A DNA stretch of 5,891 bases from a plasmid. Position numbers and translations under genes: made by a program. Numbering within the stretch: position 1 is the first letter of the stretch; the number at the start of each line of letters is the position of its first letter. The stretch lies in NCBI RefSeq assembly GCF_054482525.1, contig NZ_JBTHVG010000008.1; one strand, 5' to 3'. Shown here piece by piece: positions 762 through 4,721 of this stretch. Under the pieces are notes generated by a model. That model did no database searches. It saw only the letters and a list, made by a program, of their open reading frames with translations, and was not told the origin of the DNA.

Positions 762-966
762 AACCATGAAAAATGGCAGGTTCATTGGATTAAGGCGGAC
801 TAATGTGCTCTGTGCCATCTGGTTGCATAGGTATTCATACGGTTAAAATTTATCAGGCGCGATCGTGGCAGTTTTTCGGGTGGTTTGTTGCCATTTTTAC
901 CTGTCTGCTGCCGTGATCGCGCTGAACGCGTTTTAGCGGTACGTACAAACTGTTGTTATGTTAAAT
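760..966. other. cer-like Xer (XerC/XerD) multimer-resolution site: accessory sequences plus core at 938..966
   Basis: The stretch 846-946 (gcgatcgtggcagtttttcgggtggtttgttgccatttttacctgtctgctgccgtgatcgcgctgaacgcgttttagcggtacgtacaa) closely matches ColE1 cer as I remember it. Core: XerC-arm-like GGTACGTACAA (938-948), central region actgttg (949-955), XerD-arm-like TTATGTTAAAT (956-966). Each arm is one mismatch from the cer arms GGTGCGTACAA and TTATGGTAAAT. Confidence 0.7.
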
Positions 967-988
967 ACTGATGGGCTTTCCTGCTTGA

Positions 989-1873
989 TTATCCGAAGAG
1001 CAATCCCCAAACACTTTTAGCTACAGAAACAATGGCTTTCTTGGCGACTTTAGCCACTGACGCTATTGGTTTAGGTAGTACGGTGTCTATTATATCATCA
1101 ATAGCTCTATCTACGGTGTCTGCGAACCCGTCCTTTGCCGTTTCTACAATTTCTTTTGTTTTTATTTCGTCTTTTACTTGATGCACCACTCCGCTCTGTG
1201 CTTCCTTTGGGAGCGATCTTACTATTGCCTCCACTAACCTTGAAATGTTATAACCTTCATTCGCAGATACAGATATAACGGGATGTTTGGTAAAACCGAA
1301 TCGTTCTATTAAGTATTCTTCCTTTTTTCTAATATTTATTTGTTGTGAGGGTGATGGTTGGTGTTTTTCTTCATCCCATTCGCGGAATGGCTCAATCTTG
1401 TCGACTTGGTTTAAAACAAACAACACTTTTTCATCACCACCAACTGGTTTTAAAACATTTTTATAAAAGTGCTCATCAGCTGAAAATGCTCGATCATCAC
1501 CTTTAACAACCCAAAGCACCAGATCTAATTCTGGGAGAAGATTTTTATACAACTCTTCATATTCTATATCTTTAGCTTCATTTTCACCTACACCTGGTAT
1601 ATCTATTATTTTAATTGTTCTATCACCAAATGAAATTATTAATTCCTGAACCTTTCTCGTGCATGCTTCTACATCACTCACTGCACATACATTACCTTTA
1701 AAGATAGAATTACATAGGCTGGATTTACCAGCGCCGGTTTTACCCATAATCCCTATTACTGGTTCGTAATTAATAACATTTCTAATTTTGTTATAGACAG
1801 ACTTGCGAATCTCTTTAGGTAGAACATCCACAGCTTCTTTGATTAATTTTATACCTTGCGTATTGTTTTCCAT
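989..1873 (-). CDS. P-loop GTPase of the YfjP/YkfA/YeeP (MMR_HSR1-like) family with C-terminal amphipathic tail, 294 aa from the MENNTQ start
   Basis: The track ORF is 989..1960 on the minus strand. I prefer the ATG at 1873 (MENNTQGIK...): it has a GAGGA about 11 nt upstream and avoids overlap with the upstream gene, which ends at 1909. Motifs read in the translation: G1 GIMGKTGAGKSS, G3 DIPG, G4 NQVD, G5 SVSA. Conserved blocks ELDLVLW, DEHFY and QPSPSQQ resemble the E. coli CP4-prophage GTPases YkfA/YfjP/YeeP as I recall them. The C-terminus (PKPIASVAKVAKKAIVSVAKSVWGLLFG) looks amphipathic. Confidence 0.8.
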   Translation of the reverse strand: MENNTQGIKLIKEAVDVLPKEIRKSVYNKIRNVINYEPVIGIMGKTGAGKSSLCNSIFKGNVCAVSDVEACTRKVQELIISFGDRTIKIIDIPGVGENEAKDIEYEELYKNLLPELDLVLWVVKGDDRAFSADEHFYKNVLKPVGGDEKVLFVLNQVDKIEPFREWDEEKHQPSPSQQINIRKKEEYLIERFGFTKHPVISVSANEGYNISRLVEAIVRSLPKEAQSGVVHQVKDEIKTKEIVETAKDGFADTVDRAIDDIIDTVLPKPIASVAKVAKKAIVSVAKSVWGLLFG

Positions 1874-1908
1874 AGTTACTATTTTCCTCATTTTGTTGTT
1901 CATATGAA

Positions 1909-2343
1909 TTAACGGAAGCTTGTTTTTCTTTCTTCTTTTTCTTCCCCGCATACAGAACATTTGTAATGGCGATAGGTATCAGAACTCCCACTAAGATACC
2001 AATTGTGTCTTTTACCATGAACTCGCTCTGTAAAACATCTCACGCATCTTTCTTTCACATTGCAATAATCATCGACTGCAATTTCAACAAATCTTTCATG
2101 CCTTTCGCCTTCTTGTTCAGCGCCACAGTCGATACACTTTTTTACAGTTGTGCACTTGAAATCGTATTTATAACTTTCCTCTCCGTATTTATGCTGTTCT
2201 TTTTGTATAGTGCGATTGCAGTCAGGGCATAGTTTAGAATATTTACAAGTCTCACCATCAATAAGCTTATAGTTTCCTCCGTGTATACCTACCCCACACT
2301 TAGCCTTGATTGCTGCATTTTTTATGCTATCCCAAAAGCCCAT
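1909..2343 (-). CDS. Cysteine-rich small protein (144 aa) with three tandem CX5CX2C motifs plus a terminal CX2C; putative multi-zinc-ribbon protein
   Basis: ATG at 2343 (minus strand) is preceded by GGGAGA at about 7 nt spacing. The translation has 12 Cys arranged as CKYSKLCPDC, CTTVKKCIDC, CNVKERCVRC and CSVC, spaced about 30 aa apart. It ends 35 nt before the GTPase start, so the two are probably co-transcribed. I recognise no family. Confidence 0.7.
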   Translation of the reverse strand: MGFWDSIKNAAIKAKCGVGIHGGNYKLIDGETCKYSKLCPDCNRTIQKEQHKYGEESYKYDFKCTTVKKCIDCGAEQEGERHERFVEIAVDDYCNVKERCVRCFTERVHGKRHNWYLSGSSDTYRHYKCSVCGEEKEERKTSFR

Positions 2344-2389
2344 GGAAAAATCTCCCTACGATTAGTTGATATAAGTTGAACAATTCATC

Positions 2390-2440
2390 GACATGATTAT
2401 ACACGTATAGTGTGTGGATATATAAAAATGAGTATGGATT
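2390..2440 (-). promoter_or_regulatory. Candidate sigma70 promoter for the Cys-rich/GTPase gene pair (perfect -10 TATAAT on the minus strand at 2396..2401)
   Basis: The minus strand reads ...acgtgTATAATcatgtcg... about 50 nt upstream of the 2343 start codon. The -35 region is AT-rich and weak (TATATA-like). This is an inferred position within a 227-bp AT-rich intergenic gap (2344..2570). Confidence 0.3.
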
Positions 2441-2570
2441 TATGCTCTGTATAATGTTTTTGTTATGTTAAATATAGCGCTGAAAAAGTGGGGGCACTGG
2501 ATAAACTTCGTGTTTTTCCCGCAAAGATAGTATTGGAAAGTCATTGTCTAATTCATCCAAGATAAATATT

Positions 2571-3383
2571 TTACGAATTTGTGAGTTTGCTTGAGATTTT
2601 TATATATTCAGCCTTTATTAACTCATTGCCATATTTTTTCTCGAGTCTTTTAACAATGAAATGACCTCGAGCCATATCTTGATAATAGTCGGTAAACATT
2701 GTGTTTAATGTGGCTCCAGTTAGTGCTCCAATAACGGGAACGACTTGAGCTGCCATTTTTTCCGTAATAACTATACCAAATCTTGTTGCAACTTTTTCTA
2801 TTAACGAAGCTAACCATTTTCCTGTTTGTACTGAAGATGCGTTTTTGACAGCAATGTTAGAAATTTCTTTGGATAAATCTTGTACGATCTCGGCAGTCAA
2901 ACTTCTTGTTGCATAGTATGCAGTATTAGCTGCATCATCGTCATCAGATGGTCCTCCCAAGGAAAACACCTCTAAGCAGGCCAGTTTGGTATCAATATTA
3001 TCTAGCTCAAAACCTTCACTTCTTGCTATGTCAGCAATTGAACGAAGCATAATTGTCGTTGAAACCGGTAACTCAATTGCTAATGCAGAAAAGCCAAAAG
3101 CGCCACCAATGGCTCCAGATACGGCCGCAAAGAATTTATTTGTCTTAGTTGATGCTATTCGGTTAGGTTCATTGTCTAGACTCCATAAGGCCGCATCAGC
3201 AGCTTTGTGGAGCGATTTTTCTACTAGACTATAAATTTGCTCTTCTGCCCCTTTGGGAAGTTTACTCATTAAGTAATCTATTGGGGTTCCAACTAATTGG
3301 GTTAATGTTTCAGTAATTGTATCTTGTTCTAATAATTCTACGGCCCTTTCTAAAGCCCGCAGATCTCCTTCTTCAAGATGCAT
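2571..3383 (-). CDS. EcsC-family-like protein (putative), 270 aa
   Basis: Long minus-strand ORF. Its ATG at 3383 is preceded by AAAGGA at about 9 nt. It has Gly/Ala-rich hydrophobic segments (AAVSGAIGGAFGFSALAIELPVSTTIMLRSIADIARSEGF and VVPVIGALTGATLNTMFTDYY) that I associate with EcsC-family proteins. That assignment is from memory and unverified. Confidence 0.6.
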   Translation of the reverse strand: MHLEEGDLRALERAVELLEQDTITETLTQLVGTPIDYLMSKLPKGAEEQIYSLVEKSLHKAADAALWSLDNEPNRIASTKTNKFFAAVSGAIGGAFGFSALAIELPVSTTIMLRSIADIARSEGFELDNIDTKLACLEVFSLGGPSDDDDAANTAYYATRSLTAEIVQDLSKEISNIAVKNASSVQTGKWLASLIEKVATRFGIVITEKMAAQVVPVIGALTGATLNTMFTDYYQDMARGHFIVKRLEKKYGNELIKAEYIKISSKLTNS

Positions 3384-3536
3384 ATAATGAATCCTTTATG
3401 AATCAATCGATAGTCTACTTTTGTAAGTGATTCGTCTTGGGAGCTTACCTTGAGCGAGTTCAGTGATTCAATAGGCGAGATGCCGACATCATTGTTGTCT
3501 GTGAAGCAGGAGTGATGAAAAGATCAAAGGATCCTC

Positions 3537-3565
3537 TTGTGATCCTTTTTTTCTGCGCGTAATCT
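3537..3565 (+). promoter_or_regulatory. RNAII (primer) promoter: -35 TTGTGA (3537..3542), 17-bp spacer, -10 TAATCT (3560..3565)
   Basis: Positional and sequence equivalent of the pBR322/pMB1 RNAII promoter (TTGAGA - 17 bp - TAATCT). The transcription start is predicted at G3573. Confidence 0.7.
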
Positions 3566-3574
3566 GCTGCCTGT

Positions 3575-3682
3575 AAACAAAAAAACCACCGCTACCAACG
3601 GTGGTTTGTTTGCCGGATCAAGAGCTACCAACTCTTTTTCCGAAGGTAACTGGCTTGGTGGAGCACAGATACCAAATACTGT
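3575..3682 (-). ncRNA. RNAI antisense copy-number control RNA (about 108 nt)
   Basis: The minus strand beginning at 3682 reads acagtatttggtatctg..., the RNAI 5' end. It is complementary to the 5' end of RNAII. Its promoter (-35 TTGAAG, -10 CTACACT) lies at 3689..3718 on the minus strand. Confidence 0.85.
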
Positions 3683-3688
3683 CCTTCT

Positions 3689-3718
3689 AGTGTAGCCGCA
3701 GTTAGGCCACCACTTCAA
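3689..3718 (-). promoter_or_regulatory. RNAI promoter (-35 TTGAAG, -10 CTACACT on minus strand)
   Basis: The reverse complement of 3689..3718 reads ttgaagtggtggcctaactgcggctacact, matching the pBR322 RNAI promoter apart from one base in the spacer. Confidence 0.65.
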
Positions 3719-4119
3719 GAACTCTTAATATCTCAATCCACCTTGTCCAGTTACCAGTGGCTGCTGCCAGTGGCGCTTTGTCGTGTCTTACCGGGTTGGA
3801 CTCAAGACGATAGTTACCGGATAAGGCGCAGCGGTCGGGCTGAACGGGGGGTTCGTGCACACAGCCCAGCTTGGAGCGAACGACCTACACCGGGCCGAGA
3901 TACCAACAGCGTGAGCTATGAGAAAGCGCCACGCTTCCCGAAGGGAGAAAGGCGGACAGGTATCCGGTAAACGGCAGGGTCGGAACAGGAGAGCGCACGA
4001 GGGAGCCACCAGGGGGAAACGCCTGGTATCTTTATAGTCCTGTCGGGTTTCGCCACCTCTGACTTGAGCGTCGATTTTTGTGATGCTCGTCAGGGGGGCG
4101 GAGCCTATGGAAAAACGCC

Positions 4120-4140
4120 AGCGGCGCGGCCTTTCGTTGC
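4120..4140 (+). other. ColE1-type origin of replication (RNAII-to-DNA transition)
   Basis: The sequence aaaaacgccagcggcgcggcctttcgttgcc corresponds to the pBR322 ori switch region (aaaaacgccagcaacgcggcctttttacgg). Confidence 0.65.
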
Positions 4141-4369
4141 CCTTTGCCTTTTTGCTCACATGTTCTTTCCGGCCTTATCCCCTGATTCTGTGGATAACCG
4201 TATTACCGCCTTTGAGTGAGCCGGCACCGCTCGCCGCAGCCGAACGACCGAGCGTAGCGAGTCAGTGAGCGAGGAAGCGGAAGAGCGCCGGAACGTGCAT
4301 TTTCTCCTTACGCATCTGTGCGGCATTTCACACCGCATATAGCGCTCTTTTCTTACAATCTGCACTGAT

Positions 4370-4440
4370 GCCGCATGGTTAAGCCAGTATACACTCCGCT
4401 ATCGCTACGTGACTGGGTCATGGCTGCGCCCCGACACCCG
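4370..4440 (-). other. oriT / bom (basis of mobility) with nic region near 4381..4385
   Basis: The reverse complement of 4376..4440 reads cgggtgtcggggcgcagccatgacccagtcacgtagcgatagcggagtgtatactggcttaacc, the pBR322 bom sequence, which contains the nick site in the TGGCTTA context. It lies between the origin and rom, as in pBR322. Confidence 0.65.
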
Positions 4441-4529
4441 CTAAAACCTGCTGACGCGCCCTGACGGGCTTGTCTGCTCCCGACATCCGCTCACAGGCAA
4501 GCTGTGACCGTCTCCGGGAGCTACATGTG

Positions 4530-4721
4530 TCAGAGGTTTTCACCGTCATCCCCGAAGCGTGAGAGGCAGCTGCGGTAAAGCTCATCGGCGTGCTCGTGAA
4601 GCGATTCACAGATGTCTGCCTGTTCATCTGCGTCCAGTTCGTTGAGCTTCTCCAGCAGCGTTAATGTCTGGCTTCTGATAAAGCGGGCCATGTTAAGGGC
4701 GGTTTTTTCCTGTTTAGTCAC
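4530..4721 (-). CDS. rom: Rom/Rop, RNA-one modulator (63 aa)
   Basis: The translation MTKQEKTALNMARFIRSQTLTLLEKLNELDADEQADICESLHEHADELYRSCLSRFGDDGENL differs from pBR322 Rop, as I recall it, at only two residues. It has a GTG start with GGAGG upstream and is convergent with RNAII, as in pBR322. Confidence 0.9.
   Translation of the reverse strand: MTKQEKTALNMARFIRSQTLTLLEKLNELDADEQADICESLHEHADELYRSCLSRFGDDGENL

Follow-up and report, generated by a model that had tools for sequence, protein, structure and literature searches.

The window analysed here, a stretch of 5,891 bp, is the entire plasmid pMV-v4-SK2-O-b of Klebsiella pneumoniae (100% identity), a mobilizable plasmid of the ColE1 type on which no paper was found in the literature. 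Its backbone (50-63% G+C) contains RNA I at 3680->3577, as reported by Rfam, and also carries rop, mobC/mbeB/mbeD and the relaxase region, whereas the AT-rich cargo (32-43% G+C) consists of three genes, all of them on the minus strand: ecsC, which encodes an EcsC-family protein (3383->2571; PF12787, E = 1.3e-31), a gene for a Cys-rich protein of 144 amino acids that is assigned to no family (2343->1909), and a gene for a GTPase of 294 amino acids (1873->989; MMR_HSR1, E = 4.5e-17). The interval under study is the spacer of 227 bp between ecsC and the Cys-rich gene (2344-2570), in which the original prediction had seen a regulatory node composed of an internal promoter, an opposing antisense promoter and an intrinsic terminator, all serving to control costly cargo. 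The main non-random feature of this interval, which had been missed by that prediction, is a second Xer core-like sequence resembling the core of the plasmid's own cer site.

In the Enterobacteriaceae of the gut, small ColE1 plasmids abound as platforms for gene capture, and about a dozen copies of this one, at an identity of at least 99.4%, are distributed among E. coli, Salmonella and Klebsiella. A public collection has 1,486 blocks in which this exact Cys-rich protein is indexed and, in all of the 24 longest contigs from these blocks, the EcsC protein, the Cys-rich protein and the GTPase are encoded together on the same plasmid.

The cer core and a second, Xer core-like site in direct orientation

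The plasmid contains a single long exact direct repeat, the 15-nt sequence TTGTTATGTTAAATA at 953-967 and again at 2460-2474; when shuffles are made with the AT-rich island kept apart, 1.3% of them contain a repeat of at least 15 nt. The first copy lies in the true cer-type core of the plasmid (site 1, plus strand, 938..966; GGTACGTACAA-ACTGTTG-TTATGTTAAAT), where it covers the XerD arm and the adjoining bases of the central region. The second copy belongs to an Xer core-like sequence in the spacer (site 2, plus strand, 2444..2473; GCTCTGTATAA-TGTTTTTG-TTATGTTAAAT), which is recognized by the repeat and by the arm match and in which 2444-2454 (GCTCTGTATAA) would be the XerC-like arm, 2455-2462 (TGTTTTTG) the central region and 2463-2473 (TTATGTTAAAT) the XerD arm. 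In all 11 positions the XerD arm of site 2 matches the 11-nt sequence TTATGTTAAAT, which is both the XerD arm of E. coli dif and the proteobacterial consensus. This arm is present exactly twice in the plasmid, both times on the plus strand, and a search that allows up to one mismatch finds the same number, two against 0.15 expected; at the sequence level, site 2 is a direct repeat of the cer core at 938-966. The arms of ColE1-like sites differ from the proteobacterial XerD consensus by one G/T (PMC5935869).

The cer cores of other plasmids provide a frame for site 2. Those of pACN001-C (GGTGCGTACAA-TATTGTTG-TTATGTTAAAT), pVPS18EC0505-6 (GGTGCGTACAA-TTACAGGG-TTATGTTAAAT) and the K. pneumoniae FDAARGOS_1330 plasmid (GGTGCGCATAA-AATGGGG-TTATGTTAAAT) end in the same XerD arm, and the core of a 3.2-kb plasmid that carries ecsC reads GGTGCGCGCAA-TACGGGA-TTATGGTAAAT. 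The central region of site 2 agrees with that of pACN001-C (TATTGTTG) in six of eight positions in the window (TGTTTTTG) and in seven of eight in the allele of other copies of the plasmid (TGTTGTTG), and the inner ...ATAA of the XerC arm is common to site 2 and these cores as well. The perfect TATAAT on the plus strand, which had been interpreted as a promoter element, occupies 2450..2455 and is formed by the last five bases of the XerC-like arm and the first base of the central region. The second Xer core-like site reinterprets this hexamer and suggests how a two-gene block could have been acquired. A XerC-like half-site at the minus-strand TATAAT of the spacer (TACGTGTATAA) was also considered and rejected, as no XerD arm follows it.

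Site 1 and site 2 differ in their surroundings. An ARG box, the only match in the plasmid, lies about 100 bp upstream of site 1 (824-837), the accessory DNA upstream of site 1 is common to other ColE1 plasmids, and site 1 has the orientation of RNA II. The segment 823-898 on the plus strand contains this ARG box, a Pcer-like element (TTGCAT/15 bp/TAAAAT) and then a GGCA...TGCC-TTTTT hairpin (867-898); by analogy with ColE1 it is probably an Rcd-type checkpoint RNA, and Rfam reports nothing at 823-898. The Pcer-like element, with TTGCAT at 823-828 and TAAAAT at 844-849, lies about 90 bp upstream of the site 1 core, which is presumably the placement of Pcer in ColE1 cer. The possibility that the plus-strand TATAAT of site 2 is a Pcer equivalent was rejected, since the matching element lies upstream of the site 1 core and outside any core. 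Pcer, the promoter of cer, has a spacer of 15 bp (PMC5935869), and the orientation of cer is the same as that of RNA II in ColE1-like plasmids (PMC2831885). To the left of site 2 neither an ARG box nor accessory DNA was found, and the leader of the Cys-rich gene lies there instead, which makes site 2 a bare core.

Site 2 also varies between copies of the plasmid. Among eight aligned copies, site 1 shows no variation, and site 2 presents T/G at 2459, the deletion of a GTT unit and G/A at 2467 in the XerD arm, that is, three independent changes in 30 bp versus about 22 in the remaining 2.6 kb. The GTT-unit deletion leaves a central region of 5 nt (alleles L025/L026/L045/L050) in place of the 8 nt of the window and most copies, and the 5-nt allele recurs in a metagenomic copy that is more divergent (96-98% identity). 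For resolution of the dimer type, accessory sequences are required (PMC7399989). Because site 2 has no accessory sequences and varies between copies, it looks like a scar: it is probably inactive today, or only weakly active, and would represent the trace of a recombination event that keeps the cassette next to it fixed. Four related plasmids were scanned whole and no convincing second Xer core was found; three of them lack a second site within one mismatch of the XerD arm, and the fourth has a one-mismatch match inside a gene without a XerC-like arm. BLAST searches of the 47-nt site 2 sequence against plasmids returned the same lineage only, plus chance matches in Gram-positive bacteria.

Promoter-like motifs and transcription across the spacer

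The two TATAAT hexamers are located where the original prediction had placed them. The minus-strand hexamer lies at 2401->2396, its last base being 53 nt from the ATG (2343) of the Cys-rich gene, and the plus-strand sequence ctgTATAATg lies at 2447-2456, with its hexamer at 2450-2455. Nevertheless, the convergent geometry attributed to them is not the one found, since both boxes, which are the arms of an 8-nt inverted repeat (TGTATAAT), stand back-to-back and would fire away from each other. The hexamer occurs four times in the whole plasmid (2.73 expected; 57 of 200 shuffles reach four) and twice in the spacer (0.82 expected), a number that is reached in 19% of shuffles. Within 2344-2570 a consensus scan detected no sigma-70 site. 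The minus box matches the -10 consensus in six of six positions, and its -35 options, TATATA (3/6) at 17 bp and TTTATA (4/6) at 19 bp, which are located on the minus strand inside an A/T-rich stretch (2419..2426), do not pass that scan. The plus box is preceded by ATGAGT (3/6) at 16 bp and, in both boxes, TG abuts the hexamer directly, so that neither is an extended -10 (TGn).

A position-weight scan was also performed, with an approximate matrix of our own and with candidates ranked over the whole plasmid. The minus box, the best minus-strand candidate in the spacer, ranks 27 (7.62 bits) and the plus box ranks 28 (7.60 bits), next to the RNA II promoter (rank 24, 7.70 bits), the RNA I promoter having rank 2 (9.72 bits); both boxes are thus within the range of working promoters. 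However, a minus-strand candidate that is equal or better is found in 79% of dinucleotide shuffles of the spacer, and the motifs of the spacer are no better than chance for its AT-rich composition. As for antisense transcription into ecsC, which the plus-strand box had been supposed to drive, the poor -35 of this box and the fact that its TATAAT is accounted for by the Xer core-like site (the end of the XerC arm plus a T) speak against such a role. The better antisense candidate is a promoter-like match on the plus strand at 2544..2572 (TTGTCT at 2544-2549, 17 bp, TATTTT at 2567-2572), which points into ecsC and has the highest score in the plasmid (10.21 bits, rank 1), a score that is matched in 21% of the spacer shuffles.

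The hairpin that had been offered as the terminator of the ecsC transcript exists as a sequence (minus strand, 2483..2498): AGTG-CCCC-CACT spans 2498->2487 and is followed by four more T at 2486->2483. With a stem of 4 bp, a loop of CCCC and a folding energy of -2.4 kcal/mol, it was not reported by the terminator scan and is absent from the minimum-energy folds of its 61-nt and 237-nt contexts. An intrinsic terminator is expected to combine a G+C-rich stem of at least 5 bp with a U-tract, and this hairpin has 4 bp and four unpaired U, the RNA I terminator of the same plasmid having 11 pairs by comparison; it is not credible as an intrinsic terminator. More generally, terminator scans and folding found no intrinsic terminator between ecsC and the Cys-rich gene. 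Read-through from the promoter candidate of ecsC (TTGAAT, 18 bp, TAAGCT, with the -10 at 3447->3442; 8.26 bits, rank 13) is therefore possible.

Taken as a whole, a regulatory node in this spacer seems improbable. In its favour, both perfect -10 hexamers exist and score in the range of the RNA II promoter, and the hairpin, with its 4 bp, is more stable than shuffled versions of the same 29 nt (z = -3.15). However, the counts and scores of the motifs are at chance level for the composition, both boxes lack an adequate -35 and an extended -10, the plus hexamer is explained by the Xer core and is surpassed as an antisense candidate by 2544-2572, the hairpin is weak and lost in larger folds, and the boxes are divergent. 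Moreover, the idea that opposed promoters keep costly cargo under tight control has no counterpart in the data, since nothing shows that the cargo is toxic or costly and the plasmid is very common, as its 1,486 collection blocks indicate. For annotation in general, a perfect TATAAT in AT-rich DNA may be part of a recombination site and not a promoter.

A second arrangement would be a single operon in which ecsC, the Cys-rich gene and the GTPase gene are all transcribed from the ecsC promoter and the motifs of the spacer are spurious, even if the Xer-like site may still be a scar. The three genes are co-oriented and have no intrinsic terminator between them, a better-scoring promoter candidate lies upstream of ecsC, the promoter-like content of the spacer equals that of shuffles, and the trio was always found together in the 24 longest contigs examined. 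Against this, the spacer would be an untranslated, C-rich and G-poor gap of 227 nt, where Rho is expected, from the known properties of rut sites, to stop a transcript that is uncoupled from translation. The minus-strand RNA at 2500->2423 contains 20 C and 6 G, which makes it the most C-over-G-rich stretch of the cargo, and its composition would be rut-like, of the kind that Rho is generally understood to prefer. Gene neighbourhoods also bear on this point. The homologues of the Cys-rich gene (loci L007-L019) are all stand-alone genes, with upstream spacers of about 150-750 bp in most loci, and they never adjoin a GTPase gene in the loci examined. In the same way, the GTPase has its closest relative (67% protein identity) in a chromosomal tRNA-Gly island, at the head of a separate unit, and a cassette that arrived as a unit would have needed its own promoter. 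A single operon is thus rather doubtful, although the points in its favour give it some weight.

The internal promoter that had been proposed for the Cys-rich/GTPase pair fares better in its context than in its motif: the stand-alone homologues and a limit of 100 bp make it plausible, whereas the hexamer itself carries no statistical weight. If the boundary of the cassette lies at 2444, only 100 bp are left for its promoter and, within this segment (2344-2443), the TATAAT at 2401->2396 is the sole strong -10. Judged by its context, it is a plausible candidate for the -10 of the Cys-rich/GTPase transcript, better than any other, and the leader would be about 46 nt long. The hexamer is invariant in all good copies of the plasmid, but these are at least 96% identical, so that its conservation has little weight. 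Translation signals in the leader are clearer, with a Shine-Dalgarno sequence GGGAG on the minus strand (2352..2356), 8 nt before the ATG at 2343, and a start codon that is confirmed by the conserved N-terminus MGFWDSIKNA in the alignment of homologues. Two bases downstream of the minus -10, position 2394 differs between copies, the window having A and most other copies having G on the minus strand; it is the only common variant in the putative promoter and leader. At the other end of the pair, no terminator was found after the GTPase gene (940-1000, minus strand), and transcription of the cassette would enter the cer core from the XerD side; ColE1 plasmids have been argued to avoid transcription from this side, which could displace XerCD and derepress Pcer (PMC2831885).

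Other searches added little to the spacer. Rfam recognizes only RNA I in the plasmid and nothing in the spacer, the folding of the spacer is unremarkable on either strand (z = 0.38 and -0.75), small open reading frames of 21-34 amino acids in the spacer are unsupported and were discarded, and a phage database gave only chance matches of 21-22 nt. The only long inverted repeat of the plasmid, 2415-2429/2596-2610, consists of 15 nt of A/T only, 14 of them complementary, and spans site 2 and the ecsC stop codon; a long-range AU stem could form on a read-through transcript.

Boundaries of the putative cassette and proposed origin of the junction

In hundreds of mobilizable ColE1 plasmids, homology to the window ends immediately past the XerD arm of site 1, at 966-974. 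The four relatives that were examined share the accessory region and the core and carry unrelated cargo from the first base past the XerD arm and, since the relatives diverge there, the XerD side of cer is the cargo junction in this backbone. From core to core, the DNA between site 1 and site 2 forms a putative cassette of 1,507 bp that is nearly all coding, its non-coding parts being 22, 35 and 100 nt. On the minus strand, the cassette body (967..2443) comprises these 22 nt, the GTPase gene (1873->989), the 35 nt, the Cys-rich gene (2343->1909) and the 100-nt leader. The cassette between the two Xer sites holds only the GTPase gene and the Cys-rich gene and no recombinase.

It is fairly probable that the spacer is the junction of two cargo modules, in which a leader with a putative promoter, the scar of a second Xer core and the tail of ecsC follow each other, and not a purpose-built control region. 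Plasmids are known to form cointegrates and to take up genes and elements by means of Xer sites (PMC6764390 and the papers that it cites). The ancestor would have been an EcsC-carrying ColE1 plasmid in which accessory DNA, the cer core, a short spacer and ecsC stood in this order. A circular DNA with its own Xer-like site, whose XerC arm was GCTCTGTATAA, could have recombined with this cer core by means of the host XerCD. On the left, the XerC arm of the plasmid would have been joined to a XerD arm, giving site 1, with the inserted genes behind it; on the right, the XerC arm of the circular DNA would have been joined to the XerD arm of the plasmid and to the old downstream DNA, giving site 2. 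Each side would carry a hybrid site, in full agreement with the arrangement observed. The segment 2344-2443 would then be the leader of the Cys-rich/GTPase pair, with a good ribosome-binding site and probably a weak-to-moderate sigma-70 promoter that uses the minus TATAAT as its -10. The segment 2474-2570 would be the untranslated tail of ecsC, whose transcripts might either read through into the cassette or end by the action of Rho.

The cargo on the far side of the junction has relatives of its own. Plasmids of 3.2 kb that carry ecsC without the cassette match the window at 2577-4721 with 89-92% identity, and downstream of ecsC they have a cer site whose relative orientation is that of site 2. 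The homology with these plasmids breaks at 2576/2577, in the final codons of ecsC, which end in ...KLTNS* here and in ...KLTNQNQRKHLNSN* in the 3.2-kb plasmids (L002 1746-1779); this break is best described as an illegitimate junction, not as an Xer site. Between it and site 2 lies an orphan segment of 103 bp (2474..2576, minus strand) with the ecsC stop codon and the untranslated tail, found only in this plasmid lineage. The 3.2-kb plasmid L002 contains a different small Cys-rich open reading frame (1438-1659, plus strand) that resembles a zinc ribbon (CxxC ... CxxC), is located between cer and ecsC and is convergent with ecsC. EcsC may thus habitually travel with small Cys-rich proteins.

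Several observations weigh against an origin of the junction by integration at cer. The XerC-like arm of site 2 (GCTCTGTATAA) matches the XerC arm of dif (GGTGCGCATAA) in only seven of 11 positions, the inner ...ATAA being kept and the outer half being divergent, and the central regions differ in length, with 7 nt in site 1 and 8 nt (or 5 nt) in site 2. The homology break with the EcsC-only plasmids is at 2576/2577 and not at site 2. In PLSDB, 5,426 E. coli genomes, the 24 longest of the 1,486 blocks and the JGI metagenomes, neither a plasmid with an empty site nor a copy of the cassette in another context was found. Of two pattern scans of the JGI metagenomes, the first gave nothing and the second gave one more copy of the same plasmid, the empty-site pattern being absent. 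The two genes of the cassette, moreover, derive from families that are normally found apart, so that the cassette itself would be a mosaic. As regards its promoter, the minus-strand candidate finds no statistical support in the spacer shuffles, and there is no phylogenetic footprint either, since the upstream regions of nine Cys-rich homologue loci do not align; the best predicted promoters of these nine loci lie 41-164 nt from the ATG, at a distance that is not conserved.

The weak XerC-like arm, the unequal central regions, the failed searches for an empty site or a second context and the other module break, which is clearly not at an Xer site, could also indicate that the 15-nt repeat is unrelated to Xer and arose by chance or by microhomology-mediated illegitimate recombination at the XerD arm of cer. 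This explanation has a slim probability. A repeat of this length occurs in 1.3% of shuffles and would, in addition, have to land on the 30-bp cer core. The similarity reaches past the repeat into the class of the central region and the inner bases of the XerC arm, the left boundary of the module is also at a XerD arm, and none of the four related plasmids scanned whole has a convincing second site. Furthermore, XerD arms are far better conserved than XerC arms, and it is the inner part of each arm that is conserved (PMC2731167, PMC5935869). The integration of a cassette at the cer core, followed by the decay of site 2, thus continues to be the preferred reading.

If cargo does enter cer by means of the host XerCD, this would explain why the cargo always begins right after the XerD arm in this backbone and would provide a recombinase-free route for spreading accessory genes, possibly including phage-defence genes. 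The Cys-rich family is very small, with 13 clusters among 5.8 billion proteins, and its member in the window has no match in Pfam, NCBIfam or PADLOC. The protein contains three C-x5-C-x2-C-x8/9-H repeats and a terminal CxxC, whose Cys and His residues are invariant or nearly so. Homologues occupy variable regions, including defence islands: in Yersinia they adjoin the conflict systems MComp1/CTD4/SMC and DO-GTPase/GAP1, and others are located beside McrB, in a lambdoid prophage and, in Mixta, between mutS and rpoS. The GTPase, which presumably belongs to the YfjP/YkfA/YeeP family, is related to chromosomal genes annotated as 'GTPase family protein', with DNA matches in 2,037 of 5,426 complete E. 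coli genomes, at about 64-70% identity among the matches listed. In PADLOC, weak matches link the GTPase to LeoBC and LeoA and the EcsC protein to the candidate PDC-S29. A further open reading frame of 67 amino acids (1815-2018, minus strand) lies in another frame and covers the final 110 nt of the Cys-rich gene as well as the start of the GTPase gene. Its product would have a transmembrane-like helix with KKKKK after it; this reading frame is probably due to chance, since the frame of the Cys-rich gene is conserved to its end in the homologues.

Comparison with known systems

In E. coli, AT-rich, horizontally acquired DNA contains spurious or weak sigma-70 promoters, intragenic and antisense, that are silenced by H-NS. 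The motifs of the spacer resemble them in having good -10 boxes, poor -35 boxes, occurrence on both strands and chance frequency in DNA of 32-35% G+C. However, the box at 2401->2396 differs from spurious promoters in that it sits where an autonomous cassette would need a real one. The elements of the spacer are of familiar types: beside a candidate sigma-70 promoter, whose -10 is consensus and whose -35 is weak, there is a bare Xer core that marks a ColE1 cargo junction.

Sites of the cer type consist of a XerC arm, a central region of 6-8 bp, a XerD arm and about 180 bp of accessory DNA for ArgR and PepA. Site 2 resembles those of ColE1 plasmids in its consensus XerD arm, in an 8-nt central region of the pACN001-C class and in a left arm that ends in ...TATAA, and it has the same orientation as the real cer site of the plasmid. 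Unlike them, it lacks an ARG box and accessory DNA, the outer half of its XerC arm is divergent, and the site varies among copies, one allele having a central region of 5 nt. Since the accessory DNA was tested for and is absent, site 2 does not appear to be a cer-type resolution site and should not work as one.

The modules of Acinetobacter known as pdif modules are flanked by inversely oriented sites and recur in many contexts. The cassette resembles such Xer-bounded modules in being a short block of genes without its own recombinase between Xer cores, one of them a non-cer site without accessory sequences, and related plasmids switch cargo precisely at the XerD arm. Here, in contrast to the pdif modules, the sites are directly repeated, and only one plasmid lineage is known to have the module. 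As mobility across contexts was tested for and not found, the cassette cannot be filed as a mobile Xer module. The sites that flank the Acinetobacter modules are characteristically without accessory sequences (PMC7399989), and ColE1-type plasmids have been proposed to evolve by recombination at Xer sites, the examples being qnrB19 plasmids (Tran 2012) and pECL18/pKPN2 (Zakharova 2002), as cited in PMC6764390 and PMC7399989.

It would be a bolder and improbable step to regard the 1,507-bp interval as a mini-cassette that is still mobile and that, without a recombinase of its own, moves between enterobacterial ColE1 cer sites or dif by means of the host XerCD. Its four components would be an Xer site, a promoter, the Cys-rich protein, which is zinc-finger-like, and a GTPase similar to YfjP. 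Such an element would correspond, in enterobacteria and with directly repeated sites, to the pdif modules of Acinetobacter and would be the smallest element of the IMEX kind; through the perfect TATAAT in the XerC arm, transcription out of the site would depend on whether XerC occupies it.

The elements of the IMEX type, which include CTX-phi, VGJ-phi, TLC-phi and the gonococcal genetic island, end up integrated and flanked by two direct hybrid Xer sites (PMC5357621). The known ones are phages or large islands that target chromosomal dif, whereas the case considered here is a two-gene insert of 1.5 kb in a plasmid cer site, and the 1,507-bp cassette shows no sign of present mobility. Nevertheless, the proposed course of events is the same: a circular element with one degenerate dif-like site would have entered the Xer site of its host and left direct hybrid sites, one arm of which is divergent. 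By analogy, the cassette most resembles the result of an IMEX-type integration, but into the cer site of a plasmid.

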